From positions 1-18,053 of the IMG/VR virus record IMGVR_UViG_3300045988_162755: 18,053 bases of DNA; one strand, 5' to 3'. The first letter of the stretch is position 1. Every line of letters starts with the position of its first letter. Below, one piece after another: positions 1 through 18,053 of the stretch. The position numbers and the translations under genes are program-made. The notes below the pieces were generated by a model, which worked only from the letters and a program-made list of their open reading frames with translations, was not told the DNA's origin and searched no databases. This DNA is from a virus.

Positions 1-235
1 GGGGGAGCGCACAAACTCCACAAGGGAGAAACAGCACGGCAGGGGCGACAGCACAGTGCAGGGGGAGCGCACAAACTCCACAAGGGAGAAACAGGCACAG
101 TGCAGGGGGAGCGCACAAGCTCCACAAGGGTGAAACAGCACGGCAGGGGCGACAGCACAGTGCAGAAAAGCGCACAAGCTCCGCAGGACGGCAAGAGCGA
201 CAGCTCAGGAAAGCAGGAACGAGGGCGGCAGGCTC
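1..235. repeat. GC-rich tandem repeat array, ~60-bp unit (copies 1-60, 61-104 with a 16-bp deletion, 105-164, then a degenerate copy to ~235)
   Basis: Direct reading: the unit gggggagcgcacaa(a/g)ctccacaaggg(a/t)gaaacag[cacggcaggggcgacag]cacagtgca repeats head-to-tail. The segment is about 60% GC against roughly 37% for the rest of the window. It is exactly mirrored at 17819..18053. Confidence 0.8.
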
Positions 236-442
236 TCAGAAGTTGCGACTTTGGCGGTCATTGTTTTGGAAGCCTATTATTAAGTTATCATTCAGCGTTG
301 CAAGGTATGCGTTGACCTGCTCCAGTTCCTTGCGCATTTCACGTGCTTCAAACCATGTTCCAATGATTGATATGATTATCAGTATAAATACGATTAGCCC
401 GGCTATAAACCAAAATGTTAAGGTTGTTAATACCGCTTCCAT
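236..442 (-). CDS. small membrane protein (68 aa: N-terminal TM helix, charged coiled C-terminus) co-oriented just downstream of the XRE regulator
   Basis: ORF track. The mirror copy 17612..17818 has a strong RBS, aaggagg, 8 nt upstream of its ATG. Hydrophobic stretch FWFIAGLIVFILIIISIIG. Confidence 0.55.
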   Translation of the reverse strand: MEAVLTTLTFWFIAGLIVFILIIISIIGTWFEAREMRKELEQVNAYLATLNDNLIIGFQNNDRQSRNF

Positions 443-790
443 TTACTTTTCCTCCTTGATTTTGATAACAGCCTTAGGGCTGTTTTTCTGTGTTATGTTG
501 TATTTTCCGTTGCTTTGCTCCTTGTATCCTCTGCCGCGCTTGTCATTTGTCAATCCTGCTATATAGTCAATGCTCACATCATAAAAAATCGCAAGCTTTA
601 TTACTCTTTCAAATGGGATTGGTCTTACGCCGTTTTCATACTTGGCATAATATGATTGCTCTGTCCCTAGTATTCTTGCCACATCTTCTTGGCTTAAATC
701 TTTGTCCTCTCTGAGGTCTTTCAACCTTGGATAATAATTTGTACTAATTTTTGTCACTCCTTTGTTGTTACACTTTTGGTTATTTATCAT
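443..790 (-). CDS. XRE-family helix-turn-helix transcriptional regulator (phage repressor-like)
   Basis: Canonical HTH_XRE signature ...LKDLREDKDLSQEDVARILGTEQSYYAKYENGVRPIPFERVIKLAIFYDVSIDYIAG. The exact start is uncertain, because the N-terminal ~25 aa upstream of the HTH are unusual. Confidence 0.75.
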   Translation of the reverse strand: MINNQKCNNKGVTKISTNYYPRLKDLREDKDLSQEDVARILGTEQSYYAKYENGVRPIPFERVIKLAIFYDVSIDYIAGLTNDKRGRGYKEQSNGKYNITQKNSPKAVIKIKEEK

Positions 791-837
791 AATTTAATTA
801 CCTTAATTTTGTTTAAGTAAACAAATTATATCACAAG

Positions 838-911
838 TGACCTTAAAAGTCTTGACAATAGGCTATATGTGACCTATAATGCTAATTGTAGGTTACATAT
901 GACCTAAACGC
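838..911. promoter_or_regulatory. Divergent promoter/operator region: rightward consensus promoter TTGACA(852-857)-17 nt-TATAAT(875-880); leftward promoter with extended -10 (TGaTATAAT on the minus strand); three TGACCT-containing operator-like half sites
   Basis: Direct reading. The -35 and -10 are perfect consensus hexamers with 17-nt spacing. The near-palindrome atatgtgacct...aggttacatat overlaps the -10. TGACCT motifs lie at ~842, ~870 and ~901. Confidence 0.6.
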
Positions 912-956
912 AAAGTAAAGGTGAGCGGATAACCTCAACCGCAGAAAGGAAAAAAC

Positions 957-1262
957 ATGAGAGGAATACTTATAGGAGCAATCCACAAGAAAGGCACATT
1001 TACGGACGATAACGGAAAATCAATCGACTATGACAACTTGGTGCTACAGGTGCAAAAGCCTATAGAAAACAAGTTGGCAGATGATTCAAATTTCGTTCAG
1101 GGTGTCGGTTACACTATCGCCAATGACTGCAAGTGTGCTTGGAGCGAAAGAGGAAACGTGTTCGGCAAAGATGTGTCTATGAAAGATATCGGAGAACTTG
1201 TCGGAACGGAAATCCAGTATTTCTACAACGATAAGAAGAAGCTTGAAGCGGTCATTATCTAA
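957..1262 (+). CDS. hypothetical 101-aa protein, the first gene of the structural operon; possibly the ssDNA-binding protein (gene V analogue), by position only
   Basis: RBS aaagga 7 nt before the ATG. The position (first gene after the regulatory region, upstream of the coat genes) matches gene V in inovirus gene order. No sequence motif supports this. Confidence 0.3.
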   Translation: MRGILIGAIHKKGTFTDDNGKSIDYDNLVLQVQKPIENKLADDSNFVQGVGYTIANDCKCAWSERGNVFGKDVSMKDIGELVGTEIQYFYNDKKKLEAVII

Positions 1263-1274
1263 GGGGGCTTGAAC

Positions 1275-1448
1275 ATGACAGTATACGCACTTTATTTTTG
1301 CTTGGTGGTGGCGCTTGCCCTGTTTTATTGCCTTACTCGTTGCTTTAAGGCAATTGATAAGAAAAATAAAGAAATTTCTAAACTGCAGTTCCGTGTTAAG
1401 GAACTGGAGCGGCAGGCTCAGGGAATTGAGGTTGTGGGCGTTGAATGA
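1275..1448 (+). CDS. small membrane protein, 57 aa (TM helix plus coiled-coil tail); possible minor virion or assembly protein
   Basis: Not in the ORF track, which lists only ORFs of 60 aa or more. ATG at 1275 is preceded by the RBS aaggggg at 7 nt. Translation MTVYALYFCLVVALALFYCLTRCFKAIDKKNKEISKLQFRVKELERQAQGIEVVGVE. Confidence 0.5.
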   Translation: MTVYALYFCLVVALALFYCLTRCFKAIDKKNKEISKLQFRVKELERQAQGIEVVGVE

Positions 1449-1665
1449 TGTCACTTCTTCACAAATTGATGTATCGTCTGTTTCTACCTCTGAGCAGACT
1501 GATGAATATACTATGTCGGCTGTTATCGAAAATCAGCACACTATAATCAATAATCAAAATATTACAATTTCATATTTAGGCACTATATGCTTTTTGATAA
1601 CAATATCTATCGGTATTTATCTTGTCATCAAGTTTGGCAAGTGGATATATAGCTTAATTAATTAA
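1441..1665 (+). CDS. small membrane protein (acidic, Ser/Thr-rich N-terminus and a C-terminal TM helix); alternative shorter start at ATG 1513
   Basis: C-terminal part of ORF 1315..1665. A TTG at 1441 is preceded by GAGGT (1428-1432) at 8 nt and overlaps the upstream stop, consistent with translational coupling. TM helix YLGTICFLITISIGIYLVIKFGKW. Confidence 0.35.
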   Translation: MNDVTSSQIDVSSVSTSEQTDEYTMSAVIENQHTIINNQNITISYLGTICFLITISIGIYLVIKFGKWIYSLIN

Positions 1666-1682
1666 GAAAGGAGAATGTGTTA

Positions 1683-1871
1683 ATGAATCCTGTTTCTACA
1701 ACTGCAGAAGGTGGCAATACTCTCGTAAATGTCGGTGAACTTATGAAACAGTTCGCTAACTCTGCTATTCAGGGCGTTTCCGATTCTATCGTCGCTCTTA
1801 TCCCTGTGATAACTCTGACAACTGTAATCGGCATTGCTATCAGAATGTTCAAAAAGTACGTAAAGGCGTAA
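1683..1871 (+). CDS. inovirus major coat protein (pVIII-like), 62 aa
   Basis: RBS aaggag 9 nt upstream of ATG 1683; the ORF track starts at GTG 1677. Classic architecture: polar N-terminus, hydrophobic helix SIVALIPVITLTTVIGIAI, basic C-terminus RMFKKYVKA (compare M13 ...IKLFKKFTSKAS). Followed directly by a strong terminator. Confidence 0.8.
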   Translation: MNPVSTTAEGGNTLVNVGELMKQFANSAIQGVSDSIVALIPVITLTTVIGIAIRMFKKYVKA

Positions 1872-1886
1872 GCCTGATAGCAACGA

Positions 1887-1918
1887 GGGCAGTTCATTCA
1901 GTGAACTGCCCTTTTATT
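1887..1918 (+). terminator. rho-independent terminator after the major coat gene
   Basis: Stem gggcagttca / tgaactgccc (10-11 bp) with a short loop, followed by ttttatt. Confidence 0.8.
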
Positions 1919-1941
1919 ATGCTAATTTTTAAGGGGGAATT

Positions 1942-2193
1942 ATGATAAATAGAAAACTATTTCATATAATTAACTTTATGCTTTGTATGCTTGATACTTG
2001 GCTTTTCATTGCCCCCTTTATAGTTTTTCATGTAATTACTTTTAATAGTATAATTTCATATCCCTTTACTACACCTAAACAAACTGCTTTATTTGGATTT
2101 ACTTTGTCTTTTCTTTTGGAGTTTATTATACATCATCTTATTTTTTCTGTTTGTCATCTTGTTGATTATTTTAGAAAGGAGAAAAAAATATGA
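1942..2193 (+). CDS. 83-aa polytopic membrane protein (2-3 TM helices)
   Basis: RBS aaggggg before the ATG. The stop overlaps the pIII start (ATGA). Hydrophobic throughout. Confidence 0.6.
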   Translation: MINRKLFHIINFMLCMLDTWLFIAPFIVFHVITFNSIISYPFTTPKQTALFGFTLSFLLEFIIHHLIFSVCHLVDYFRKEKKI

Positions 2194-3764
2194 AAACAAA
2201 ACTTCGGCGGCTTTTGTCAATCTTCTCTGCTATGGTGCTTATGGTCTGCTGTGCCGTCCCTGCGTTTGCTGATGATGTTAGCGGTGGTGGTTCGTCTAGT
2301 AACGTTATTCGTGTGAAACGATTTTCACAAATGATTGATTATGCAAAAAATAACAATATTGATATTGAAAATTCTCATTATATTATGACATATTCTGAGG
2401 ATAGTTCACAGTATTATTGGTGGTATTACATTTTCTTTCTTCCTGATGATATTTTGGTTAATGATACATTAATTCTTACACATGGTCGCTATTCATCATC
2501 TTTTACTAATTCTTTTATTAAGGCTCGTGTTTCTGACTATGGTAACTCTGACATAGATGATTTAGAATATTGTGCTAATGTTGATGTATCTTCTTTTTCT
2601 TTATTTGTTGATGATGATGAACAATCACATTCTTATCCTAATCACATCTTTAAATCTAATATTAAAATAACTAACAACGGCGATGATATAACACCTTCTG
2701 ATCCTTCCGCCCCACCAGTTCCCTTTACTGTCGATTATTCCCCTGCTCTCTCTGAGGGCATGAGTCGTAAGGGTACACTTGTTGCTCCGGGTGCAAGTAA
2801 TGACGGACAGGAAATTGAAAGCAATGGTCTTAACGTCCGTGTCACACTAACGGACGAATTTTTAAAACTCCGTGACAGCTATGATGAACTTAAAGATTAT
2901 ACATATGAATTTGTATGTTATATTACTACTTCCCCGCCTGAAAAGTCGTCTTATGAAGAAAGCGTTAAAAACGCTGTTTATACTTCTTTGGACTATGGCA
3001 AATATATGTATACTACAAGCGGCGTTGTTGATGATGTTACGGACGACAATAAAGAGCCTGCAGAATGGATAAAGGCAGAGGGCATAAATGCAGGTTACAT
3101 TATTGGTAAGGGTGGCTCTGTCAAGAATGTTACTATCAATCTTGAAAATCTTGATAGTTCACAGTTCACAGCCGATACAAAGCTTTATATCGTGGTATAT
3201 GGTCGCTTGACCTCTCTTTCAGTTCCTACTCCTGATTACTTTGACCTTGATAATCAAGGTTATTTGTGCAATCAAGGTTCTTTGAATACAAAGCAGATTG
3301 TAACAGTAAATGCTGACCCCGAAACAGGCGAGGGAACAGACGTTGTAATGCCTGATTACTATTGTGTAACGTCAACGGCATTTAATTATAAAGATTATCC
3401 TGAATATAAGCCGAAAATCTTCAAGAATGGTGCTGAAATGGATACAAACAAGCCGTTTACTGATTATCTTGATAAGAAGTTGACCCCTGATTATATGTAT
3501 GATTATGATATGGATAAAAACGGAGAAAGCGGTCTTGCTCCTGACGATTTCAAGAAATATGAGGAACAAAAAAAGCTTGATGAGAATTTCGGTTCTTTCG
3601 ATTTCGGACTTGACAGCATTAAATCAGTGTTTGACGGCTCGTCCGATTTTTTCAAATTCTTAACCGCAAGTATAGGTATCTTGCCCACAACGTTTTTAAC
3701 TATTCTGATTTCGTTTTTCGTTATCATGTTAGCAATATGCGTTGTTAAATGGGTCTTGAAATAG
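2190..3764 (+). CDS. pIII-like minor coat / adsorption protein, variant 1 (524 aa): signal peptide plus C-terminal membrane anchor
   Basis: RBS aaaggag. Signal peptide MKTKLRRLLSIFSAMVLMVCCAVPAFA|DD. C-terminal TM FLTASIGILPTTFLTILISFFVIMLAICVV. Large secreted middle part. The position after the major coat gene matches inovirus gene III. Confidence 0.6.
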   Translation: MKTKLRRLLSIFSAMVLMVCCAVPAFADDVSGGGSSSNVIRVKRFSQMIDYAKNNNIDIENSHYIMTYSEDSSQYYWWYYIFFLPDDILVNDTLILTHGRYSSSFTNSFIKARVSDYGNSDIDDLEYCANVDVSSFSLFVDDDEQSHSYPNHIFKSNIKITNNGDDITPSDPSAPPVPFTVDYSPALSEGMSRKGTLVAPGASNDGQEIESNGLNVRVTLTDEFLKLRDSYDELKDYTYEFVCYITTSPPEKSSYEESVKNAVYTSLDYGKYMYTTSGVVDDVTDDNKEPAEWIKAEGINAGYIIGKGGSVKNVTINLENLDSSQFTADTKLYIVVYGRLTSLSVPTPDYFDLDNQGYLCNQGSLNTKQIVTVNADPETGEGTDVVMPDYYCVTSTAFNYKDYPEYKPKIFKNGAEMDTNKPFTDYLDKKLTPDYMYDYDMDKNGESGLAPDDFKKYEEQKKLDENFGSFDFGLDSIKSVFDGSSDFFKFLTASIGILPTTFLTILISFFVIMLAICVVKWVLK

Positions 3765-3774: not shown

Positions 3775-3942
3775 ATGGATTGGTTTTCACTTATGAAGTC
3801 GCTGTTTGTATCAATACAACACTTGATGTGCTTGCGTATTCGTTTCGGTGAATTTAGTTTTACAGTAGGTGCAATGATTATAGGATTGTTTGTTATATCC
3901 TGCTCCGTTGCCCTGTTACGTTATCTTTTCCACAATACATAA
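3775..3942 (+). CDS. small membrane protein, 55 aa (possible pVI-like virion or assembly component)
   Basis: Not in the ORF track. RBS aggggg 8 nt before ATG 3775. Translation MDWFSLMKSLFVSIQHLMCLRIRFGEFSFTVGAMIIGLFVISCSVALLRYLFHNT. Confidence 0.45.
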   Translation: MDWFSLMKSLFVSIQHLMCLRIRFGEFSFTVGAMIIGLFVISCSVALLRYLFHNT

Positions 3943-3954
3943 GGAGTTGTTAAA

Positions 3955-4200
3955 ATGGTTGCAATATTAAAATTATTCGTCCTGTCACTGATAGTAATTC
4001 TTGCTATCAGTGCAGTTCTTGGCTTGGTGGCGTTCTTTATGGACTTGCACGCCTTTAAATCTGATAAAGACTTGTCGCTCCCTCGTAAACGGCTTATTGA
4101 AGCATTATTTGAGGAACAAGAGTTAAAAAAGCAATCGACTGAACAGCCACAGAACACGCCACAGATTGACAAGCAAGAGCCTGAGAAAGTGAGGTGGTAA
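3955..4200 (+). CDS. 81-aa membrane protein (N-terminal TM, charged C-terminal tail)
   Basis: RBS aaggag 8 nt upstream. TM VAILKLFVLSLIVILAISAVLGLVAFF. Confidence 0.55.
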   Translation: MVAILKLFVLSLIVILAISAVLGLVAFFMDLHAFKSDKDLSLPRKRLIEALFEEQELKKQSTEQPQNTPQIDKQEPEKVRW

Positions 4201-4400
4201 ATGTGTTATATGATGTTCAAAATGCCTGTTATCAGTTGCTAAAGCTTCTTGGCTGTGATCTCGCCGCTATTGACGTTATTAAAACTTGGAAGCAATTCGG
4301 TGTGCTTTGCATTGAATTTGTGTTTGCCTGTTTAATGCTTTTCCTGCTTTGGAAAATGCTTTATAATGCTATGATACGTTTCTTCAACCCTCGGAGGTAG
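4194..4400 (+). CDS. 68-aa hydrophobic protein (start GTG 4194 or GTG 4203)
   Basis: ORF track. gaggtgg lies just upstream of GTG 4203. The gene is tightly packed between its neighbours. Confidence 0.4.
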   Translation: MVNVLYDVQNACYQLLKLLGCDLAAIDVIKTWKQFGVLCIEFVFACLMLFLLWKMLYNAMIRFFNPRR

Positions 4401-4403
4401 CTT

Positions 4404-5201
4404 ATGATTTTATTAGATTATTTCGTTCGTCTGCCGTCCTTGGCGGCTTATACTGCCTATGATAAGGCTACGGCTTTATATTTTAATTGGTCGCAGATTT
4501 TCAACGGTTGGGGTATTCACCTTTTTGTCGGTAAATTCGGAGCAGGTAAGACCTCGCTTATGGTCGCTGAAGCTTATGAACTCTGTTGTAAATATCCTCA
4601 GCTTCACATACTAACAAACATTAATATTAAAAATTTCCCCGACTATACGGAGATATTACCCTTGAACACTGCACAAGATATACTCAACGCCCCTAAAAAC
4701 ACGCTTGTACTTATTGATGAAATAGGTACTATATTTAATAGCCGTGACTTTTCGGGCGGTAAATGTGCCGTTCCTAAACCGTTATTTCAGCACCTTTGCC
4801 AATGCCGTAAACGGCGTATGATGATATATGCAACAGTGCAGAGATTTAACCTCTTAGACAAACAAATTAGAGATATTACCGCAGACGTGACCGCTTGCCA
4901 TACGCATTTCAAACACCCATTTTGCCGTATACAGACAGGCTATACATATGACATTGAAGAATACGAACTCTATGCGGAAAATAAGGCTTATACACCTGCA
5001 CAGATGTACAATAGAACGTATCTACAGACAAATAAACGCCGTGAGCTTTATGATACATCACAGCTTGTCACAAATATGCTTTCAAAAGAGTATCTCAGTG
5101 ATGAAGAAATACTCTCCAATCGTGAGGGCATAGAGCCTAACACACAGCCACTTGACCGAAAGCAACGCAAATCTATTCGCAAGCGGAAAAATGCTTGGTA
5201 A
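4404..5201 (+). CDS. Zot-like P-loop NTPase (filamentous-phage assembly/morphogenesis protein, pI-like), variant 1
   Basis: Walker A FVGKFGAGKTSL near the N-terminus. Walker B LVLIDEIGT. The position after the pIII/pVI-like genes matches inovirus gene I / Zot. Confidence 0.65.
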   Translation: MILLDYFVRLPSLAAYTAYDKATALYFNWSQIFNGWGIHLFVGKFGAGKTSLMVAEAYELCCKYPQLHILTNINIKNFPDYTEILPLNTAQDILNAPKNTLVLIDEIGTIFNSRDFSGGKCAVPKPLFQHLCQCRKRRMMIYATVQRFNLLDKQIRDITADVTACHTHFKHPFCRIQTGYTYDIEEYELYAENKAYTPAQMYNRTYLQTNKRRELYDTSQLVTNMLSKEYLSDEEILSNREGIEPNTQPLDRKQRKSIRKRKNAW

Positions 5202-5206
5202 CGAAA

Positions 5207-5244
5207 CAACTCGCAGTGGTTGCCGTGAGGCTCACTGCGAGTTG
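5207..5244. terminator. bidirectional terminator hairpin between convergent genes
   Basis: Perfect 12-bp stem caactcgcagtg / cactgcgagttg with a 14-nt loop, flanked by T-rich sequence on both strands. Confidence 0.6.
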
Positions 5245-5468
5245 TTGTTGTCTTTGTTGTTAATCATCAGCAGATTGCTATTAACTGTGTTCTGCTGTAT
5301 CTGTCTTAATAATTCCGTTTGTTTCTCTTCTTCTCGTCTTATCGCTTTGCTGTTACCTGCTGTTTCAAATATAGCACATATCAACAGTATCACAATGACT
5401 ATTTTCACGATAAGTATAACAACGCCCATTGACGTCATAGCGTCCAACGCCGTGAATATTTCTTCCAT
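5232..5468 (-). CDS. 78-aa membrane protein (N-terminal TM, polar C-terminus), co-transcribed downstream of the RHH gene
   Basis: RBS gaggggtgag just upstream of the ATG. TM MGVVILIVKIVIVILLICAIF. Confidence 0.55.
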   Translation of the reverse strand: MEEIFTALDAMTSMGVVILIVKIVIVILLICAIFETAGNSKAIRREEEKQTELLRQIQQNTVNSNLLMINNKDNNNSQ

Positions 5469-5472
5469 ACTC

Positions 5473-5697
5473 TCACCCCTCGTCTGTATGTGTCTTTATT
5501 ACAATGTGGCTGTCCTCTGCGGATTTTATCTCATCAGTGATAACCTTTTTGAGATATCCTGCTTTTGATAAACCAAGCTCTTTTGCTCGGTCATTTATCA
5601 TCTGATTAAACCCCTTTGGAGCATAAAACTGTATTTTTTCGAGATTTTCTGCGTTCCATTTTGCATTTGCTTTCTTCTTGGCTTCTGATACCGCCAT
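5473..5697 (-). CDS. ribbon-helix-helix (CopG/Arc-like) DNA-binding protein
   Basis: Strong RBS aaggtggtgaggt. RHH-type pattern: N-terminal beta-strand segment (KIQFYAPKG) followed by two helices (NQMINDRAKELGLSKAGYLKKVI). Similar in pattern to the 59-aa protein at 10372..10551. Confidence 0.55.
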   Translation of the reverse strand: MAVSEAKKKANAKWNAENLEKIQFYAPKGFNQMINDRAKELGLSKAGYLKKVITDEIKSAEDSHIVIKTHTDEG

Positions 5698-5713
5698 TAC
5701 CTCACCACCTTTT

Positions 5714-5835
5714 CTACATTATACTATATCTATTGTAATTTGTCAACCACAATATACACTATATCCAGTTAATAATTATTTAATAAATACTTTACACTAT
5801 ATCCATTGCACATGGACTAGATATAGTGTATACTT
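5714..5835. promoter_or_regulatory. AT-rich regulatory region with three copies of the ACACTATATC motif (two direct at ~5755 and ~5796, one inverted at ~5821-5832); candidate RHH operator
   Basis: Direct reading: atacactatatccagtta, tttacactatatccattgca, ctagatatagtgtatac. Confidence 0.45.
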
Positions 5836-5892
5836 AATACAGACAAAGGGAAAGCGGTTATCCCACAAACCGCAGAAGAAAGGGTGTTTAAA

Positions 5893-6153
5893 ATGACTAT
5901 TTCAAATTACTATGTTCGTGAGTATCTTCGCCTTTATCGTGAATATCGTAAAGTAATTAATATATTTGATGCTTTTCTTTTGTATGGGAAAATAGAATAC
6001 ACCCTCGGTGAGTTGCGGAGAGATCTTTCTCTTGACTATCAATTTCACTGTGCCCTTCATGATAGGCTCTTTAATCTTTCTTGCCGTACTTGTGAAAAGT
6101 TCGGTCGTACTTGTGAAAAGTTCGGTAAACTTAAATCTCAGAATAATTTCTGA
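5893..6153 (+). CDS. hypothetical protein (86 aa) carrying a perfect in-frame 21-bp tandem duplication (RTCEKFG x2)
   Basis: ATG 5893; the ORF track starts at GTG 5884. The unit cgtacttgtgaaaagttcggt is duplicated at 6085-6105 and 6106-6126. Confidence 0.45.
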   Translation: MTISNYYVREYLRLYREYRKVINIFDAFLLYGKIEYTLGELRRDLSLDYQFHCALHDRLFNLSCRTCEKFGRTCEKFGKLKSQNNF

Positions 6154-6181
6154 TTTTTTTCTAAACTGAAAGGAGATTTTT

Positions 6182-6388
6182 ATGAAAAATAAATTTTACA
6201 CTGAGCAAAAGCACAGAGAAACTATGAATTCTGTTGATATGCTCGAAGGTCTTATTAATCGTATGTGCGTTACTAATGATGTCGATGAATTACGTCATCT
6301 TCTGACTTCTTCAATGTGTAGTTTGTCTGAATTATATGTTGTTGAGCGTGAAAAACTCAAAGAACGTATTTCTCAGAATGATTTCTGA
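6182..6388 (+). CDS. hypothetical protein (68 aa)
   Basis: RBS aaaggag 8 nt upstream. Its C-terminus ...ISQNDF and 3' flank resemble those of the preceding gene (...KSQNNF). Confidence 0.45.
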   Translation: MKNKFYTEQKHRETMNSVDMLEGLINRMCVTNDVDELRHLLTSSMCSLSELYVVEREKLKERISQNDF

Positions 6389-6436
6389 TTTTTCTATCTG
6401 TAAAATCTATCATGCGAACGGCTGGGGGTGAATTGC

Positions 6437-6545
6437 GAATTGTTGGAATTGTTGGAATGTTGGAAACAACAGCTTACAGGTTTTCAACATTTCAATGATT
6501 TCAATGATTCACAAGAGGGGAACGCCGTTCAAGATTTCCCCTTTT
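6437..6545. promoter_or_regulatory. iteron-like direct repeats (ttgttggaa x2 plus tgttggaa; atttcaatg x2) and a hairpin (aggggaa/ttcccct, 6516-6542) upstream of the Rep origin
   Basis: Direct reading of 6437-6545. Confidence 0.5.
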
Positions 6546-8187: not shown

Positions 8188-8264
8188 CCATTATAAGCCC
8201 ATGTATTGGCGTACATGGAATGACTACACCCGATATTACAACCCCTCGAAAGGAAGTAATCACT

Positions 8265-9894: not shown

Positions 9895-9912
9895 TTTAAT
9901 AAACCTTTCAAC

Positions 9913-9941: not shown

Positions 9942-9947
9942 CGGATT

Positions 9948-10184: not shown

Positions 10185-10204
10185 TATCCTCACTCCTTTC
10201 AATT

Positions 10205-10371: not shown

Positions 10372-10551
10372 ATGGTAAGCGAAGCACAAAAGAAAGCCAC
10401 AAGCAAATATATTTCAAAAGCATATGACCAAGTATCTTTACGAATGCCAAAGGGCAAACGAGAAGAATACAAAGCCCATGCAGAACGGCAAGGCAAGAGC
10501 CTGAACGCCCTTATAATTGAACTACTCGAAAAAGATATGCAGGAGCATTAA
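10372..10551 (+). CDS. ribbon-helix-helix DNA-binding protein, 59 aa
   Basis: Not in the ORF track. RBS agaggtga 6 nt before the ATG. Translation MVSEAQKKATSKYISKAYDQVSLRMPKGKREEYKAHAERQGKSLNALIIELLEKDMQEH. Same pattern as the 74-aa RHH at 5473..5697. Confidence 0.5.
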   Translation: MVSEAQKKATSKYISKAYDQVSLRMPKGKREEYKAHAERQGKSLNALIIELLEKDMQEH

Positions 10552-10568
10552 GCCCCTGCATTTTTTTA

Positions 10569-10766
10569 TTAATCATTTTCCTGCTGTTTTGCATAATCTC
10601 TCATAAATTGAGGGGCGGAACAATTTTCACAAACAGTTGAATCCGTAAAATGATAAACACATTCATCACAATAACCATAACAGCCGCACTCAAAAAAACC
10701 GCATTTCTTATTATCACACTTACCGAAATCAGTATTTTCCTTGCACCAAAAATTAAACTCTTTCAT
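10569..10766 (-). CDS. Cys-rich miniprotein (~65 aa, 11 Cys); putative zinc-ribbon or metal-binding peptide
   Basis: ATG at 10766 with RBS aaagga; the ORF track starts at TTG 10793. Translation MKEFNFWCKENTDFGKCDNKKCGFFECGCYGYCDECVYHFTDSTVCENCSAPQF... Confidence 0.45.
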   Translation of the reverse strand: MKEFNFWCKENTDFGKCDNKKCGFFECGCYGYCDECVYHFTDSTVCENCSAPQFMRDYAKQQEND

Positions 10767-10859
10767 TTTCAACATTCCTTTCAAAATTCTCAATAATCAT
10801 TTCAAGAACATAGCTCACATAAAGCAGAAACACCCCTGAATAAGCCGTAAGTGCTACCC

Positions 10860-11852
10860 TCATAAGTTATCACCCTTATAAGGTGAAAGCTTATAGCCTA
10901 TCGTTTTCGACATCTGAGCTTTATTCTCAGCAGATACATGAGTATATGTATCAGCCGTAAGCTTGTATGTACTGTGACCGAGCCACTCCGAAACCTCTTT
11001 CATACTGAAACCGCTATTAAGCATAAGCGTTGCATTGCTATGTCTAAGGTCATGTATACGAATTTTCGGTAAATCATTCTTGCGGAGCAAGTCTTGAAAG
11101 GCGTGCAGTACATAATCATAGTGAAGCGGTACACCCTCAGCGTTAACGCAAACATAATTCCTTGCCTTGCACAGTGGAGCTTGTCTGCCATAAAGCTTTT
11201 GCAAATAATCAAGCTGCTCATTACTAAGAGGAAATTCACGGCGAGATTTTACAGTTTTCATTCTCTTGTTTTGACTTTCGACCCAATGCCCTGACTTATA
11301 GTCTTTTATCCTAGTTCTTGTTTCACGGATATAAAGACAACGCCCGAGGAAGTCAACATTATCCCAACGCAAACCAAGTATCTCGGACTTGCGAAGTCCA
11401 AACCACACAGCGAGATACACAAAGCTTTCTATCTGAGTACCATAAGCCGCACGCAGGAGCTTCAAGAGCTGTTCTTCTGTATAGTATGACATTTCATTTT
11501 CAACCTTTCTAGGAAGCGAAAAAGCCGTGTAAGGGTTTTTGCTTATAAAATCGTTCTTATATGCGTAATTCAGACACGCACGCATGACTTCATGATGTTT
11601 ACGGAGCGTATTCACAGAAAGCCTTGTATCATGCAGTATGTGCCTTTGATAGCCCTCTATGTGCATAGGCTTAACGTCAATAAGCTTAAGTCCTTTGCTC
11701 TTGAAATAAGGGTAAAGGTATTTTGTAATGATACCTACATAGCCATCATAAGTTGACGGAGATTTTCTGTAACACGTTTCATTATTCCATACTATGATAT
11801 AGTCACAGAACAATATTTTATCCGTGTCAATGTTTTCAATGCTCATTATCAT
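10860..11852 (-). CDS. int: tyrosine recombinase / phage integrase, variant 2
   Basis: Box I GLRKSEILGLRWDNVDF. Box II HDLRHSNATLML. WLGHSTYKLTADTYTHV with the catalytic Tyr. Clearly different from integrase 1. Confidence 0.8.
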   Translation of the reverse strand: MIMSIENIDTDKILFCDYIIVWNNETCYRKSPSTYDGYVGIITKYLYPYFKSKGLKLIDVKPMHIEGYQRHILHDTRLSVNTLRKHHEVMRACLNYAYKNDFISKNPYTAFSLPRKVENEMSYYTEEQLLKLLRAAYGTQIESFVYLAVWFGLRKSEILGLRWDNVDFLGRCLYIRETRTRIKDYKSGHWVESQNKRMKTVKSRREFPLSNEQLDYLQKLYGRQAPLCKARNYVCVNAEGVPLHYDYVLHAFQDLLRKNDLPKIRIHDLRHSNATLMLNSGFSMKEVSEWLGHSTYKLTADTYTHVSAENKAQMSKTIGYKLSPYKGDNL

Positions 11853-12154
11853 TTTGCCAAGGTCCTTTCCTGATGATAGTTGTTATAGATTTTTACCTTT
11901 GTCACGTTATCAAGCTGATGAAAGACGGCTCTTGAAAGTCTGTGCTTGCGGAGATATTCAAGGAAACTTTTTGATTCAGTTGCAGGCGAAGTATTACGTA
12001 AAGCCCTAACAATATCAGAATTGCAATCGTTATTATAAAAGCTTTCAAGTATTTGTTGCTGAACGTTTTCAGACAATGACAAATAATGATTATAACTAAT
12101 CCTGCAAGTATCAGATAGAAAACGTTGAAAAGCAATAAGCATTTCATCATTCAT
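11849..12154 (-). CDS. hypothetical 101-aa protein between rep and int
   Basis: RBS aaaggagtga before the ATG. It overlaps the rep stop. Confidence 0.45.
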   Translation of the reverse strand: MNDEMLIAFQRFLSDTCRISYNHYLSLSENVQQQILESFYNNDCNSDIVRALRNTSPATESKSFLEYLRKHRLSRAVFHQLDNVTKVKIYNNYHQERTLAK

Positions 12155-13151
12155 TTAGTTCACTCCTTTCAAAATAATCATCATATTCCTTGCGGTACTC
12201 GTCAGAGTAAATATAATCAAGGAAATCTGCAATATTATCAAACCTAGCTGAAACTTCTTCAAAGTTCGGAATAATATTTACATTTGTATTGTACTTATAC
12301 TGGTTAGAGGTATAAGGTTTTGTAATAGCCGACTTTGAAACGCTATCAAAATCGGTATTACTGTATATGATCTGAGGGTCTCGATTACAGTTTCGACTGC
12401 TCCAATAATACTTGCCGAATATCTTATTATTGCCCTTTGTAATATATTTTGTGATATAGAACGCAAGAGCCGCCGAATTATTTTCCACAGGAATAGCCGT
12501 GGAAAAGCCGTATTTCCATTCAGGTATATTATACACAACGTTTCTAACGTGCAAGTTTTTTTCATCAATAGTCTTTAATGTAACAGGCTTGTTATATCCA
12601 GTTACAAGCCTTGTGCCTGAATCGACCATATCAAAGCAATCATTGATAAGAGCGTGACAATGTATACCGCCGTTCTTATGCCTTTCAGGAATGAGCAAGT
12701 ATTTCATATCTTTCCGCTTGACCTGATTTTCAAGCCACCGCCTAAGTTTTTTCTTAACAAAATCAGCATTAGAAAAATCGTATTCACTACCATTGAAAGT
12801 AATAGTGAGAAAATACGCCCACTCATTTGAAAAGGCTATATCAAAGACCTTGTCTTTTGCACGCTTTAATATATCCGTCCGTTCCCCTCTTTCCTCTTTT
12901 GAAACCTTTGCAGGTTTTTTGATTATATCAAACATATCTGTTTGAGTATCTTCTTCCTGCTGAGATTTCTCAAATTTCTCCCATTTTCGTTTAAGCTGTA
13001 ATATTTTCTGATTTTGCTGATACTCTTTAAGGTTTTTATCAACGAATATGTAATTGTTGCAATAAGTTGTTGTCGAAGAGCCGTCAGCATAGATTTTTGT
13101 TTTAGTATTTTTTAAAACGACCTCAGGGGGTAAATCATAAAAATTTGCCAT
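12147..13151 (-). CDS. rep: Rolling-circle replication initiator, φX174 gpA / filamentous-phage gII-like (superfamily I HUH, two-Tyr motif)
   Basis: Motif I FLTITFNG. Motif II (HUH) GGIHCHALIN. Motif III AFYITKYITKGNNK (YxxKY). No helicase domain. Confidence 0.7.
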   Translation of the reverse strand: MANFYDLPPEVVLKNTKTKIYADGSSTTTYCNNYIFVDKNLKEYQQNQKILQLKRKWEKFEKSQQEEDTQTDMFDIIKKPAKVSKEERGERTDILKRAKDKVFDIAFSNEWAYFLTITFNGSEYDFSNADFVKKKLRRWLENQVKRKDMKYLLIPERHKNGGIHCHALINDCFDMVDSGTRLVTGYNKPVTLKTIDEKNLHVRNVVYNIPEWKYGFSTAIPVENNSAALAFYITKYITKGNNKIFGKYYWSSRNCNRDPQIIYSNTDFDSVSKSAITKPYTSNQYKYNTNVNIIPNFEEVSARFDNIADFLDYIYSDEYRKEYDDYFERSELNE

Positions 13152-13274
13152 TTTCCCACCGCCATTTTAGTTTTTGACGGAAATTTGCGGTTATTATCAA
13201 GTATATAACCGCAAATTTCTAAGCTTGCAAGCTGTTCGCCACGGCGCACGCAGAAGCGTGCGCACGTGGCTGAA
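13152..13274. promoter_or_regulatory. intergenic region of the right phage: 14-bp perfect inverted repeat aaatttgcggttat / ataaccgcaaattt (13181-13218), 12-bp palindrome agcttgcaagct (13222-13233), and a GC-rich hairpin (13239-13268); candidate origin / packaging signal
   Basis: Direct reading. The position between the morphogenesis ATPase and rep matches the inovirus IG region. Confidence 0.45.
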
Positions 13275-14102
13275 TCAATCTTGCATAGCTTTTAAAATTC
13301 TGCTTGCTATTTTCTCTTGCTCACTCGTCCGACCGATTTTCAGCCCCTTAACAATTTCTTTTGTGTCATAAAGCGACCTTAATTCATCAGTAGCACAGAA
13401 TGTTTCTTTCCATTCTTTCGGACGTTTCCTCGTTCCTGCACTGCCCTGCTCTCCATTAATGAGATAATTTTCTTTTGTATAGCACTTATTGACGATAAGA
13501 CGTGAATTAAAATACGCCTTACAATCTATGATATAATTGACCTGCTCACGAATTATTTTTGTACACCTTTTCCACTCCTGAGCCGACCCCCATATACACT
13601 TGTGTAAATGCCGTTGCAGCGAGATATATTCGAGAAGCTCGTCCGGAGCATCTTTCCATGATTGAGAATTAAGAGTCAGGTGCATTTCATCGAACAGAAA
13701 CAGCACGCCTTGATTAACACCGTTTTCGTCAATATTCTCAACGTTCAAGATATCTTCCCAACAATCAAAAAATCTGTCAGCCACTTCCGTGTGAAAATTT
13801 GCACAAATAAGCACTTTTGGAAATCTACTCTTGACCTCTTGTGCACGTTTCACCATGCTTATAGTTTTACCTCGACCGCCTAAGCCGTTATAGAGATATA
13901 GCCCATACATATTGAACGGAACTTCTTCACCTTTAAGCCGTTTTCTAATAGTCTTGAAAGTGTCCTTTACCGATAGAGGGAACGCATGAAGCACAGGAGT
14001 TCCAAACAACATAAGAAGCACGATAACGCCCACCACAACGCTTCCCAAGGCGAGAGGTATAAGCATAGCTTTCCAATTGATATTAGCAAATGCCGACCAC
14101 AT
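13275..14102 (-). CDS. Zot-like P-loop NTPase (assembly/morphogenesis), variant 2, with an N-terminal TM helix
   Basis: Walker A LYNGLGGRGKTIS. Walker B VLFLFDEMH. N-terminal TM AMLIPLALGSVVVGVIVLLMLFG. RBS aaggggg. The start overlaps the upstream stop (TAATG). Confidence 0.65.
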   Translation of the reverse strand: MWSAFANINWKAMLIPLALGSVVVGVIVLLMLFGTPVLHAFPLSVKDTFKTIRKRLKGEEVPFNMYGLYLYNGLGGRGKTISMVKRAQEVKSRFPKVLICANFHTEVADRFFDCWEDILNVENIDENGVNQGVLFLFDEMHLTLNSQSWKDAPDELLEYISLQRHLHKCIWGSAQEWKRCTKIIREQVNYIIDCKAYFNSRLIVNKCYTKENYLINGEQGSAGTRKRPKEWKETFCATDELRSLYDTKEIVKGLKIGRTSEQEKIASRILKAMQD

Positions 14103-14320
14103 TATAAAAGCCCCCTTACAAAGTTCACAAGTGCAGATACAAGCAAAAGTCCGAGAACATAGAAAATGCTCTCAAACATCAATTCAAGATTTAAGAATTG
14201 GTCAAGCTGATACAGAAAAGAAATCATATCCCTAAGAGCTGAATAAGCTTCATCACTTATTGAGAATGACTTAAAGAACGGCAGACTAAAGAACAGCTCT
14301 ACTATTTTCGCAGTTATCAT
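14102..14320 (-). CDS. 72-aa membrane protein (pVI-like position)
   Basis: RBS gagggag. The start overlaps the pIII stop (TAATG). It has a hydrophobic C-terminal half. Confidence 0.5.
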   Translation of the reverse strand: MITAKIVELFFSLPFFKSFSISDEAYSALRDMISFLYQLDQFLNLELMFESIFYVLGLLLVSALVNFVRGLL

Positions 14321-15864
14321 TATTCTCCCTCACTTTCACTTGATTCATGAAGCTGTATTCCGAAGCAACGGAACAAAGCCTTAATTGTCGCATAGATACA
14401 GATAGCGTACATTGCTATAGTTGAAGCATTGAACAGCGCACTCTTAAGCTCGTTCGGAGCGGAGTTCATATTAAAATCAAAGTCCTTTCCGAAAAGTGTA
14501 AACGTAACTGAATTTGATGATGATTGCTTACCCTGCTGAAAAGCTTTTCTCAGCTTGGCATAAGCAGGAAATTTGCTTTCTATAGCCACATTCAAATCTT
14601 TTGAGTTAGGTACAAAAAGATAGGTCACGAGCTTCTTCAAGTCGACCACGAGATTATACAGTGCAATGCCGATATTTTTAACAATAGTCCACAAACACTT
14701 GCCGAGCCATTCAAAAATGCCTAAGAAGTTGAAGAATACAAATTTCAGAGCCGCCCACAGCCAACGGAAGAAGCCTGTGAAAGCGTTCCACAGAAATTCA
14801 ACAACCGCCTTTAAAAAGTCCGATATGCCGTCCAAGTCTTGAAACATATCAAAGTTAACGTAATCTCTTATATCAGGAAAATCAGTATCTATATAATCAG
14901 ACAAAGACGGAAAGTTTTCATAATCTTTCTTTTCATCAAACGGCTCTTTCTTGTGACTATCTACAGTATCAACAAGACTATATTCATAACTTGCGGCGCA
15001 AAATCTATCCTTATATAACGCTTCATCACCCTTGCCCTTAGCCGCTATCAAGAAGAAATAAAGCTTGCCCGTATTTTCAATATCTTTGTTGCTGTTATAC
15101 CGCATAATGCCGTCACGCATAACATTCAGAGGGATTGAGCCATGCAAAGGATTTTCTTTCGTGAAATCTCCCGAAGTGTCCATAGGGAGATAGTACCACC
15201 CATCAGAGTTAGGATAATTCCATTCTGATTGATTAGACACGGCAATATTTACGTTGTATACATCATTATCATTTTTCGGTTCAAAATTAAACAAAAAGTT
15301 TTTGCTATCATCATCATAAGTAATAGAAGCTTTATATGGTTTCGCAAATGGACTTGATACATCAAGTTTATCTCCATTATTGGTAATGTTAACATTTGTA
15401 GCATAAATGTGATTAAGATTAGAATGTGATTGTTCATCATCATCAACATATAAAGAAAAAGAAGATACATCAACATTAGCACGATATTCTAAATCATCTA
15501 TGTCAGAGTTACCATAGTTCGGTATACGCGCTACAATAAATGATTGAGTAAAAGATGATGAATAGCGACCATGTGTAAGAATTAATGTATCATTAACCAA
15601 AATATCATCAGGAAGAAAGAAAATGTAATACCACCAATAATACTGTGAACTATCCTCAGAATATGTCATAATATAATGAGAATTTTCAATATCAATATTG
15701 TTATTTTTTGCATAATCAATCATTTGTGAAAATCGTTTCACACGAATAACGTTACTAGACGAACCACCACCGCTAACATCATCAGCAAACGCAGGGACGG
15801 CACAGCAGACCATAAGCACCATAGCAGAGAAGATTGACAAAAGCCGCCGAAGTTTTGTTTTCAT
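14320..15864 (-). CDS. pIII-like adsorption protein, variant 2 (514 aa); the N-terminal ~105 aa are identical to variant 1 and the remainder differs
   Basis: Same signal peptide and N-terminal domain as the gene at 2190..3764. Divergence begins at about nt 15549. A hydrophobic C-terminal region is present. Confidence 0.6.
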   Translation of the reverse strand: MKTKLRRLLSIFSAMVLMVCCAVPAFADDVSGGGSSSNVIRVKRFSQMIDYAKNNNIDIENSHYIMTYSEDSSQYYWWYYIFFLPDDILVNDTLILTHGRYSSSFTQSFIVARIPNYGNSDIDDLEYRANVDVSSFSLYVDDDEQSHSNLNHIYATNVNITNNGDKLDVSSPFAKPYKASITYDDDSKNFLFNFEPKNDNDVYNVNIAVSNQSEWNYPNSDGWYYLPMDTSGDFTKENPLHGSIPLNVMRDGIMRYNSNKDIENTGKLYFFLIAAKGKGDEALYKDRFCAASYEYSLVDTVDSHKKEPFDEKKDYENFPSLSDYIDTDFPDIRDYVNFDMFQDLDGISDFLKAVVEFLWNAFTGFFRWLWAALKFVFFNFLGIFEWLGKCLWTIVKNIGIALYNLVVDLKKLVTYLFVPNSKDLNVAIESKFPAYAKLRKAFQQGKQSSSNSVTFTLFGKDFDFNMNSAPNELKSALFNASTIAMYAICIYATIKALFRCFGIQLHESSESEGE

Positions 15865-16112
15865 ATTTTTTTCTCCTTTCTAAAATAATCAACAAGATGA
15901 CAAACAGAAAAAATAAGATGATGTATAATAAACTCCAAAAGAAAAGACAAAGTAAATCCAAATAAAGCAGTTTGTTTAGGTGTAGTAAAGGGATATGAAA
16001 TTATACTATTAAAAGTAATTACATGAAAAACTATAAAGGGGGCAATGAAAAGCCAAGTATCAAGCATACAAAGCATAAAGTTAATTATATGAAATAGTTT
16101 TCTATTTATCAT
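15861..16112 (-). CDS. 83-aa membrane protein (identical to the 1942..2193 product)
   Basis: Mirror copy. Confidence 0.6.
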   Translation of the reverse strand: MINRKLFHIINFMLCMLDTWLFIAPFIVFHVITFNSIISYPFTTPKQTALFGFTLSFLLEFIIHHLIFSVCHLVDYFRKEKKI

Positions 16113-16135
16113 AATTCCCCCTTAAAAATTAGCAT

Positions 16136-16167
16136 AATAAAAGGGCAGTTCACTGAATGAACTGCCC
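16136..16167 (-). terminator. rho-independent terminator after the major coat gene (mirror of 1887..1918)
   Basis: Same hairpin and T run on the minus strand. Confidence 0.8.
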
Positions 16168-16182
16168 TCGTTGCTATCAGGC

Positions 16183-16371
16183 TTACGCCTTTACGTACTT
16201 TTTGAACATTCTGATAGCAATGCCGATTACAGTTGTCAGAGTTATCACAGGGATAAGAGCGACGATAGAATCGGAAACGCCCTGAATAGCAGAGTTAGCG
16301 AACTGTTTCATAAGTTCACCGACATTTACGAGAGTATTGCCACCTTCTGCAGTTGTAGAAACAGGATTCAT
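16183..16371 (-). CDS. inovirus major coat protein (identical copy)
   Basis: Mirror of 1683..1871. Confidence 0.8.
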   Translation of the reverse strand: MNPVSTTAEGGNTLVNVGELMKQFANSAIQGVSDSIVALIPVITLTTVIGIAIRMFKKYVKA

Positions 16372-16388
16372 TAACACATTCTCCTTTC

Positions 16389-16613
16389 TTAATTAATTAA
16401 GCTATATATCCACTTGCCAAACTTGATGACAAGATAAATACCGATAGATATTGTTATCAAAAAGCATATAGTGCCTAAATATGAAATTGTAATATTTTGA
16501 TTATTGATTATAGTGTGCTGATTTTCGATAACAGCCGACATAGTATATTCATCAGTCTGCTCAGAGGTAGAAACAGACGATACATCAATTTGTGAAGAAG
16601 TGACATCATTCAA
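16389..16613 (-). CDS. small membrane protein (mirror of 1441..1665)
   Basis: Mirror copy. Confidence 0.35.
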   Translation of the reverse strand: MNDVTSSQIDVSSVSTSEQTDEYTMSAVIENQHTIINNQNITISYLGTICFLITISIGIYLVIKFGKWIYSLIN

Positions 16614-16779
16614 CGCCCACAACCTCAATTCCCTGAGCCTGCCGCTCCAGTTCCTTAACACGGAACTGCAGTTTAGAAATTTCTTTATTTTTCTTATCAA
16701 TTGCCTTAAAGCAACGAGTAAGGCAATAAAACAGGGCAAGCGCCACCACCAAGCAAAAATAAAGTGCGTATACTGTCAT
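16606..16779 (-). CDS. small 57-aa membrane protein (mirror of 1275..1448)
   Basis: Mirror copy. Confidence 0.5.
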   Translation of the reverse strand: MTVYALYFCLVVALALFYCLTRCFKAIDKKNKEISKLQFRVKELERQAQGIEVVGVE

Positions 16780-16791
16780 GTTCAAGCCCCC

Positions 16792-17097
16792 TTAGATAAT
16801 GACCGCTTCAAGCTTCTTCTTATCGTTGTAGAAATACTGGATTTCCGTTCCGACAAGTTCTCCGATATCTTTCATAGACACATCTTTGCCGAACACGTTT
16901 CCTCTTTCGCTCCAAGCACACTTGCAGTCATTGGCGATAGTGTAACCGACACCCTGAACGAAATTTGAATCATCTGCCAACTTGTTTTCTATAGGCTTTT
17001 GCACCTGTAGCACCAAGTTGTCATAGTCGATTGATTTTCCGTTATCGTCCGTAAATGTGCCTTTCTTGTGGATTGCTCCTATAAGTATTCCTCTCAT
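16792..17097 (-). CDS. hypothetical 101-aa protein, gene V-like by position (mirror of 957..1262)
   Basis: Mirror copy. Confidence 0.3.
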   Translation of the reverse strand: MRGILIGAIHKKGTFTDDNGKSIDYDNLVLQVQKPIENKLADDSNFVQGVGYTIANDCKCAWSERGNVFGKDVSMKDIGELVGTEIQYFYNDKKKLEAVII

Positions 17098-17142
17098 GTT
17101 TTTTCCTTTCTGCGGTTGAGGTTATCCGCTCACCTTTACTTT

Positions 17143-17216
17143 GCGTTTAGGTCATATGTAACCTACAATTAGCATTATAGGTCACATATAGCCTATTGTC
17201 AAGACTTTTAAGGTCA
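17143..17216. promoter_or_regulatory. divergent promoter/operator region (mirror of 838..911)
   Basis: Mirror copy. Confidence 0.6.
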
Positions 17217-17263
17217 CTTGTGATATAATTTGTTTACTTAAACAAAATTAAGGTAATTAAATT

Positions 17264-17611
17264 ATGATAAATAACCAAAAGTGTAACAACAAAGGAGTGA
17301 CAAAAATTAGTACAAATTATTATCCAAGGTTGAAAGACCTCAGAGAGGACAAAGATTTAAGCCAAGAAGATGTGGCAAGAATACTAGGGACAGAGCAATC
17401 ATATTATGCCAAGTATGAAAACGGCGTAAGACCAATCCCATTTGAAAGAGTAATAAAGCTTGCGATTTTTTATGATGTGAGCATTGACTATATAGCAGGA
17501 TTGACAAATGACAAGCGCGGCAGAGGATACAAGGAGCAAAGCAACGGAAAATACAACATAACACAGAAAAACAGCCCTAAGGCTGTTATCAAAATCAAGG
17601 AGGAAAAGTAA
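17264..17611 (+). CDS. XRE-family HTH regulator (identical copy)
   Basis: Mirror of 443..790. Confidence 0.75.
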   Translation: MINNQKCNNKGVTKISTNYYPRLKDLREDKDLSQEDVARILGTEQSYYAKYENGVRPIPFERVIKLAIFYDVSIDYIAGLTNDKRGRGYKEQSNGKYNITQKNSPKAVIKIKEEK

Positions 17612-17818
17612 ATGGAAGCGGTATTAACAACCTTAACATTTTGGTTTATAGCCGGGCTAATCGTATTTATACTGATAATCATATCAATCATTGGAACATG
17701 GTTTGAAGCACGTGAAATGCGCAAGGAACTGGAGCAGGTCAACGCATACCTTGCAACGCTGAATGATAACTTAATAATAGGCTTCCAAAACAATGACCGC
17801 CAAAGTCGCAACTTCTGA
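17612..17818 (+). CDS. small membrane protein downstream of the XRE regulator (identical copy)
   Basis: RBS aaggagg 8 nt upstream. Confidence 0.55.
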   Translation: MEAVLTTLTFWFIAGLIVFILIIISIIGTWFEAREMRKELEQVNAYLATLNDNLIIGFQNNDRQSRNF

Positions 17819-18053
17819 GAGCCTGCCGCCCTCGTTCCTGCTTTCCTGAGCTGTCGCTCTTGCCGTCCTGCGGAGCTTGTGCGCTTTTCTGCACTGTGCT
17901 GTCGCCCCTGCCGTGCTGTTTCACCCTTGTGGAGCTTGTGCGCTCCCCCTGCACTGTGCCTGTTTCTCCCTTGTGGAGTTTGTGCGCTCCCCCTGCACTG
18001 TGCTGTCGCCCCTGCCGTGCTGTTTCTCCCTTGTGGAGTTTGTGCGCTCCCCC
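17819..18053. repeat. GC-rich ~60-bp tandem repeat array (mirror of 1..235)
   Basis: Reverse complement of 1..235. Confidence 0.8.

Follow-up and report, generated by a model that had tools for sequence, protein, structure and literature searches.

Lambdoid prophages that reside in one chromosome in inverted orientation, as in Streptococcus pyogenes and E. coli O157, recombine with each other and give rise to chromosomal inversions and hybrid phages. Among filamentous phages, Roux et al. 2019 (PMC6813254) catalogued the integrated inoviruses of Bacillota, including multi-prophage insertions, while 800 predictions in which two or more pI genes occurred were set apart there as prophages integrated in tandem; one inovirus rolling-circle replication (RCR) family in that catalogue, iPF_00203, has a superfamily-3 helicase (S3H) domain. 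Adjacent inovirus prophages and module exchange have therefore already been described (PMC6813254). For contigs that end in inverted terminal repeats (ITRs), CheckV (PMC8116208) reported that only 33% are of high quality. We analyzed an 18,053-nt stretch of viral DNA, positions 1 to 18,053 of the IMG/VR record IMGVR_UViG_3300045988_162755 (hereafter the window), which carries two inovirus-like prophages facing each other across a divergent pair of host tRNA genes and which is flanked on both sides by identical inverted arms of about 2.5 kb. The left and right phages are referred to as L and R, and the contigs with which the window was compared are cited by number (L002 and so on).

L and R share with the catalogued inoviruses (PMC6813254) a size of 8-9 kb, a Zot/pI-like ATPase, small hydrophobic coat-like proteins and a large pIII-like protein, as well as an RCR Rep, a tyrosine integrase, tRNA attachment (att) sites, and replication and integration genes that recombine as modules. 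The locus differs from the tandem insertions of that catalogue in that the phages lie head-to-head on two adjacent divergent tRNA genes, not in tandem at one site, and in that the two phages of this strain appear to share an identical 2.5-kb module. As with the lambdoid pairs, related prophages are opposed and carry inverted homology, and recombinant junctions are seen (L021 and L022); unlike those pairs, L and R are inoviruses, the interval measures only 13 kb and an inversion is only hypothetical. One contig from another sample (L021) has a junction of the kind expected from an inversion of the core. We tentatively suggest, as a possible rather than an expected state of affairs, that in this Hominimerdicola lineage two unrelated facing filamentous prophages have a perfect inverted repeat in common, 2.5 kb or longer, and that the locus is a natural generator of hybrid inoviruses. 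If this were true, recombination across the repeat or across the N-terminal domain (N-domain) of pIII would flip the 13-kb tRNA-bearing core, and regulatory and coat modules as well as adsorption-protein domains would be swapped between the phages.

A base-by-base comparison confirmed the claim of an earlier note on this DNA that the outer ~2.5 kb mirrors itself: position x is the reverse complement of position 18054-x with 0 mismatches over positions 1-2507, and the first mismatch falls at position 2508. The left arm (1..2507, plus strand) is thus the perfect reverse complement of the right arm (15547..18053, minus strand). Identity between the arms past 2507 falls off by degrees, with 87% in 2501-2600, 71% in 2601-2700 and random level (23-39%) thereafter. 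The stretch at 2508..2684 (plus strand, mirrored at 15370-15546) encodes a diverged homologous part of the pIII N-domain (~80%), and a repeat search reported inverted arms at 1-2684 and 15370-18053 that are 99% complementary and spaced 12,685 nt apart. The 2508-2684 stretch marks the inner limit of identity and is the likely crossover zone on the inner side. A chance origin of a perfect 2.5-kb inverted repeat is excluded. The arm-encoded proteins are identical, as had also been claimed, and this follows by construction from the perfect complementarity of the arms. The gene-level differences that had been proposed for the inner parts of the two phages were recovered as well: the Zot-like ATPases of L and R share 25% identity (E 2e-15), the integrases share 25% identity, the Reps show no similarity, and similarity between the pIII proteins is confined to the first 183 aa (85%).

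The mirror is a property of the assembly, in which a single graph node is attached to both ends of the 13-kb core. The ENA assembly ERZ28621731 (sample SAMEA2581957) holds the two parts separately. Its scaffold_8134 (L024; 2,507 nt) is 100% identical to window 1-2507 over its full length, and its scaffold_1278 (L162; 13,084 nt) corresponds to window 2453-15601, with 55-nt arm overlaps at both ends. A core of 13,039 nt plus two arms (13,039 + 2 x 2,507) gives 18,053, the length of the window. Because L024 and L162 split the arm from the core, the window can be written as the core plus one repeat node used twice; the caveat of the earlier note that a collapsed inverted repeat might flank the contig was thereby borne out. 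The window and ERZ28621731 appear to derive from the same sample, since L024 and the window start at the same base; the study label of SAMEA2581957 points to the liver-cirrhosis cohort of Qin et al. 2014 as its probable origin. Of the truncated pIII fragments, the N-terminally shortened one starting at 2454 has no record, and those ending at 2507 are absent from the protein collection.

The window ends inside a GC-rich (~50-60%) tandem array (1..200, mirrored at 17854-18053) in which 34-nt units are separated by spacers of 26 or 10 nt. A full 60-nt period occupies positions 1-60 and recurs at 61-94, and the contig stops within the array, the copy number of which differs in every strain examined, from one unit (L166) to at least four (L022). 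Gene callers placed an open reading frame (ORF) of 133-190 aa across the array, which is probably spurious. Two other contigs with the same arm (L022 and L023) run 1.6 kb past position 1 through the array, a hairpin element, att(Met) and a host GH3 gene. Since the window ends lie in the array and these contigs continue outward, the ends are places where the assembler stopped. The suggestion that the window is one composite element was not supported, nor was any reading of the arms as termini, as the R phage continues for ~480 nt to its att site and GH3.

Comparison with other contigs indicated that the arm is a mosaic, in which an R-type repressor/coat block (1-1947) is joined once, by microhomology, to a 560-nt L-type block, segment S (1948-2507). 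Typical R phages match window 1-1958 / 16096-18053 (~98%) and 9891-15340 (95-98%) and lack 1959-2258, so that pIII directly follows the coat gene. In typical L phages (L012, L015 and L020) the match to window 1945-9502 is 99.7%, and upstream of this stretch lie quite different genes, encoding 91, 61 and 100 aa, with attL(Pro) beyond them. Segment S (1948..2507, plus strand) holds an 83-aa membrane-protein gene (1942-2193) together with the pIII signal peptide and first 106 codons, and has 0 mismatches to the typical L phage L015. The junction between the R-type module and S (1942..1958, plus strand) lies at the microhomology AATAGAAAACT (11-13 nt), which is common to the start of the R pIII signal peptide and to a site within the 100-aa gene of L. 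The ATG of pIII in typical R phages falls at this junction, as does the ATG of the 83-aa gene in the window. The junction at 1948 is real DNA, since five independent contigs (L022-L026) cross it. It is also rare: an exact-pattern scan for the R-type/S junction found none in IMG/VR and, in the metagenome collection, only the known contig L023.

Segment S occurs in four combinations of outer module and inner core. The L-type module/S/L core arrangement was found in many contigs, R-type module/S/R core in L022, L-type module/S/R core in L021, and R-type module/S/L core in this window only. The pIII N-domain region (~2250-2700) is common to L, to some R phages and to a third phage type described below, at 91-98.5%, and is the evident crossover zone, in keeping with the modularity already known for inoviruses (PMC6813254). 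Recombination in the pIII N-domain reshuffles modules between phages with unrelated replication and integration genes.

We consider it fairly likely that two full copies of the arm are present in one replicon, and the mirror probably reflects a real and very recent duplication of the recombinant module. Both prophages of the strain would then carry the whole recombinant module, acquired through a very recent transfer between co-resident relatives that recombined through the shared pIII N-domain, which would leave a genuine inverted repeat no shorter than 2.5 kb. A real two-copy repeat would be a tractable example of a very recent exchange between prophages of one host. Each arm-to-core joint is found elsewhere: that of S to the L core in L012, L015 and L020, and that of S to the R core in L021 and L022. 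Both of the latter are essentially identical to the window where they align, L022 over 4,775 nt and L021 over 6,653 nt with a single mismatch, which lies at the junction. The path of the window passes through the R-type block on both sides. The SPAdes contigs L023 and L024 and the unitig-type Logan contigs L025 and L026, the latter two from different studies, all pass through 1948 without a break. They end at 2507 or 2604 (the Logan pair at 2604), which is where the pIII genes of L and R diverge. A path-extending assembler should have stopped at 1948, and not run on for 1.9 kb on both sides, if an L-type branch entered there at core depth. Contigs with the window-specific allele of the left Rep lack complete copies of both pIII genes, which likewise favours two copies. 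In addition, a tRNA-Pro phage (L122, IMGVR_UViG_3300014767_000043), a hybrid of the third type, has an R-type repressor/coat module that is 98% identical, and the R-type module can therefore occupy the left site. The typical left phage has a shorter left module (the 91/61/100-aa genes beside attL(Pro)) without the repressor or the 101-aa gene; since L normally has this different module, a real left arm would imply module replacement. Campbell-type insertion of a circular form of the recombinant right phage (R') into the L prophage was rejected, as it leaves an L-type branch at 1948 or loses Rep and integrase, and break-induced replication and double crossovers through the L/R homology patches at 5878-6158 and 6395-6542 were rejected on the same ground.

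Several observations weigh against two full copies. The linkage of R-type block, S and L core occurs only in the window. All 23 contigs with the identical 524-aa left pIII have the L-type left module where the region is visible, most of those that reach far enough show the FGGY flank, and the R-type module is absent from all ten contexts shown for the identical left Zot. A look-up of the 83-aa protein gave no contig joining the arm to the left pIII. The L core is nearly that of a typical L phage, with only 4 single-nucleotide polymorphisms in ~7 kb. The attL-proximal region of L showed no homology to the R-type module that could end an outer gene-conversion tract, and the arm has no att(Pro) copy, the att copies of the tRNA 3' ends giving no match of 10 nt or more within the arms. 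The Logan runs behind L025 and L026 may lack the L core, and the break at 2604/2605 is not specific to this arm, because Logan assemblies break there in many samples holding both L and R (look-ups of pIII fragments starting at 2577 and 15477). Finally, the window differs at tRNA-Pro positions 9255 and 9269 from all other contigs examined (L162, L012, L015 and L020); acceptor pair 6-67 is thereby disrupted and the conserved GG of the D-loop is lost, and the changes likely represent a consensus or path error of the window, or a sample other than that of L162.

Alternatively, only segment S (~560 nt, 1948-2507) would be truly duplicated, and the left 1-1947 would be a path-error copy of the end of the right phage. 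The right phage would then be the recombinant R', while the left phage would retain attL(Pro), the FGGY flank and its usual L-type module. In favour of this, the left-type phages that were assembled independently all show the L-type module wherever that region can be seen, and the L core is nearly identical to that of those phages; L021 joins the L-type module and S to an R core that matches that of the window except for one base at the junction. S would be unbridgeable because it is longer than typical short-read inserts, and the L024/L162 split is also compatible with this arrangement if the assembler used path extension. An L-type branch at core depth should, however, have stopped path extension at 1948, not given the same choice twice, and the unitig contigs L025 and L026 should break at 1948 but do not; L024 is likewise one unbroken contig from 1 to 2507. 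We regard the duplication of S by itself as rather unlikely, while keeping it in serious view. A mixed population, containing either inversion isomers of the core (formed through S or the arm copies) or several recombinant variants, seems improbable to us. Three of the four junction combinations occur in independent contigs of near-identical parts, and ERZ27311621, in which the window's allele of the left Rep also occurs, nevertheless has the arm continuing into the R core without a break, which points to unequal abundance of the two phages there. Set against this, the 13-kb core is in one piece through both att boundaries in two assemblies, and L021 crosses S without a branch, indicating a single arrangement in its sample.

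Compared with two full copies in facing prophages, readings that dispense with the prophage pair or with the repeat itself fare poorly. The symmetry reaches both ends of the window, as it would in a complete linear element with genuine 2.5-kb ITRs (an ITR phage, a plasmid or a composite transposon-like unit), and ITR contigs are commonly scored as complete genomes; the window resembles the ITR contigs of CheckV (PMC8116208) in having the same sequence, inverted, at both ends. In contrast to true ITR genomes of that class, the repeat is an internal prophage module and the contig consists of two phages plus host tRNAs. Independent contigs with the same arm have further phage DNA, att(Met) and host GH3 beyond position 1, the ends lie inside a tandem array of variable copy number, and the tRNA pair with both phages is chromosomal in contigs of up to 3.2 Mb. 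Neither a polymerase nor a terminal-protein gene was found in Pfam and PHROG scans of the window proteins, and the small high-quality fraction among the ITR contigs of CheckV (PMC8116208) also argues against such an element, which we find barely credible. The case is a caution, in that a contig with 2.5-kb "inverted terminal repeats" which would be accepted as a complete virus in fact comprises two prophages and host tRNAs, the one repeat node having been written out twice. A chimera formed by fold-back or amplification, without any biological repeat, would suit the perfect mirror and the short-read metagenome source. Yet many independent contigs run colinear with the unique 13-kb core, both arm/core junctions recur in other samples, each of them within an uninterrupted pIII frame, and identity decays gradually (2508-2684) with no abrupt end; a chimera is very improbable.

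The two phages are placed by the tRNA pair between them. The tRNA-Pro(GGG) gene (9198-9274, minus strand) contains at its 3' end the 46-nt att core of L (attR, 9197-9242), and the tRNA-Met(CAT) gene (9425-9501, plus strand) contains at its 3' end the 45-nt att core of R (attL, 9457-9501). The outer att repeat of L (attL) lies ~100 nt after the host FGGY-kinase gene (6660-6705 of L015) and is absent from the window. The 45-nt direct repeat of R is present in L022, L023 and L121, and its outer copy lies ~480 nt beyond the window end, adjoining the host GH3 gene (L022 and L023). The two phages face each other because each integrase abuts its own tRNA. The host order is FGGY kinase, L, tRNA-Pro (minus), tRNA-Met (plus), R, and the GH3 glycosidase or an island inserted there. 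An Rfam match to the Staphylococcus small RNA S774 at 9333-9444 (54.7 bits against a gathering threshold of 48) overlaps both the promoter/leader of tRNA-Met and the beginning of the tRNA itself; it therefore probably does not mark an RNA gene of its own.

We placed the phages by exact-protein look-ups in long human-gut metagenome contigs. L and R were found head-to-head in L013, L018 and L165 (50-284 kb) and in the Hominimerdicola aceti isolate Sanger_31 (L037), R alone at the locus in L002, L007, L010 and L166, and L alone in L012, L019 and L020. The third phage type sits at tRNA-Pro, alone or in tandem with L (L003-L005, L013, L016 and L028), and has a 296-aa integrase, a 333-336-aa G2P Rep and a 264-aa Zot (also in L133 and L135). 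The host is a human-gut Hominimerdicola (Oscillospiraceae) chromosome; it was named through a genome scan, in which the Oscillospiraceae isolate H. aceti strain Sanger_31 carried L and R at the site. Of the proposal in the earlier note of a homogenised prophage pair, the part that stood is that two distinct inovirus-like prophages converge on a divergent tRNA pair, with the att sites mapped and the layout recurring; the homogenisation of homologous modules did not. Beyond attR(Met)/tRNA-Met we also observed other islands in some strains, namely a DUF4314/DNA-methylase/Bro-N element and a serine-recombinase element (L002-L010, L014, L015, L017, L164 and L167). Because other islands enter there too, the tRNA pair is a general integration hot spot. 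Together these placements document a very common human-gut inovirus system for which the host and the att sites are defined and in which occupancy of the hot spot varies.

By their genes, L and R are two different temperate inovirus-like phages. The Pfam and PHROG scans of the window proteins found no tailed-phage (capsid or terminase) genes. Megablast of the whole window against phage and plasmid collections returned only tRNA matches and a 169-nt match to a 5-kb faecal contig.

The arm genes outside segment S belong to the R-type module and are present in mirrored copies on the other side. A 68-aa membrane protein (236-442) and a 115-aa HTH_3 repressor (443-790; 4e-16) are encoded on the minus strand, with copies at 17264-17818 on the plus strand. 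The R-type early/structural genes follow on the plus strand and encode a 101-aa protein (957-1262), a 57/90-aa ORF (1275-1665) and a 62-64-aa major-coat-like protein (1677-1871), with copies at 16183-17097 on the minus strand. The 64-aa coat-like ORF scored 19.6 bits against Pfam Phage_coatGP8, under the cut-off of 24.6; its size, position and hydrophobic segment fit a small major coat protein.

Phage L is ~8.1 kb long, as estimated from att positions in other contigs. Its pIII-like minor coat/adsorption protein (524 aa; 2190..3764, plus strand) is followed on the plus strand by genes for small membrane proteins of 55, 81 and 68 aa (within 3775..6388) and by the Zot/pI-like ATPase (4404-5201), which scored 31.3 bits against Pfam Zot (cut-off 20.3) and matched the PHROG 'protein I of M13' at 5e-12. 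The L core also holds an Arc-like 74-aa gene and a 78-aa gene on the minus strand (5232-5697) and 89-aa and 68-aa ORFs (within 3775..6388). The 317-aa tyrosine integrase (8220..9173, plus strand) ends 24 nt from tRNA-Pro. A Logan contig (L175, SRR19742785_13765) is a circularly permuted L genome with attP(Pro) internal, which suggests an excised, episomal, replicating or tandem form of L in that sample.

The Rep of L (399 aa at 6706..7905, or 442 aa in a long form at 6577-7905, plus strand) combines an HUH endonuclease, with the motifs FCVINNP, HLH and YINK, and an S3H domain. Pfam detected only the helicase, and PHROGs gave no match; the protein matched the solved Reps 9pqq (1e-14) and 7lar (1e-10), the latter of which we take to be the Rep of porcine circovirus 2. 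By these motifs and by its matches to solved Reps of this class, the left Rep is like that of circular Rep-encoding single-stranded (CRESS) DNA viruses, with which it shares the HUH and S3H domains (cf. iPF_00203); unlike in CRESS-DNA viruses, it sits in a bacterial filamentous prophage.

On the other side, the R core occupies 9553..15864 (minus strand). The right arm beyond it is the outer part of prophage R'; the independent contig L022 confirms that this arm is joined both to the R core and to attR(Met)/GH3. Reading outward from tRNA-Met, the core carries a 113-aa ORF (9553-9894, minus), an Arc-like gene (10372-10551, plus), the 330-aa integrase (10860-11852, minus), a 101-aa ORF between integrase and Rep (minus), a G2P-type RCR Rep (12147-13151, minus; REP_ORF2-G2P at 1.8e-12), the Zot/pI-like ATPase (13275-14102, minus; PHROG morphogenesis family at 3e-5), a 72-aa ORF between Zot and pIII (minus) and, as the outermost gene, the hybrid pIII of 514 aa (14320-15864, minus). 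Two strong hairpins (z-score -8.7) lie between Rep and Zot at 13170-13270, a site at which L162 lacks 63 nt (13200-13262). The R genome is complete in prophage L121, in which att(Met) repeats at both ends lie 8,715 nt apart. R is very common in the human gut: within the assembly collection searched, 1,605 blocks contain its Rep, and two contigs as long as 1.7 and 3.2 Mb are among the places where it lies.

Two segments of the L core have counterparts in R phages. Positions 5878-6158, inside which lies a perfect 21-nt tandem duplication (6085-6126), are 86-95% identical to the tRNA-Met-proximal end of the R phages of other strains; the R phage of the window has the 113-aa ORF (9553-9894) in place of such a segment. 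The 5878-6158 segment counts as a further exchanged module. A conserved non-coding element at 6400..6545 (plus strand), in which TGTTGGAA repeats face TTTCAAT repeats, folds as a 30-47-bp hairpin (z-scores -3.1 and -8.7). This hairpin is a candidate single-stranded DNA/complementary-strand origin or packaging signal. It is 72% identical to the R element between the array and attR (1440-1588 of L022), despite the unrelated Reps of the two phages, and it is also found in the 5-kb human faecal contig MT838628.1 (94%).

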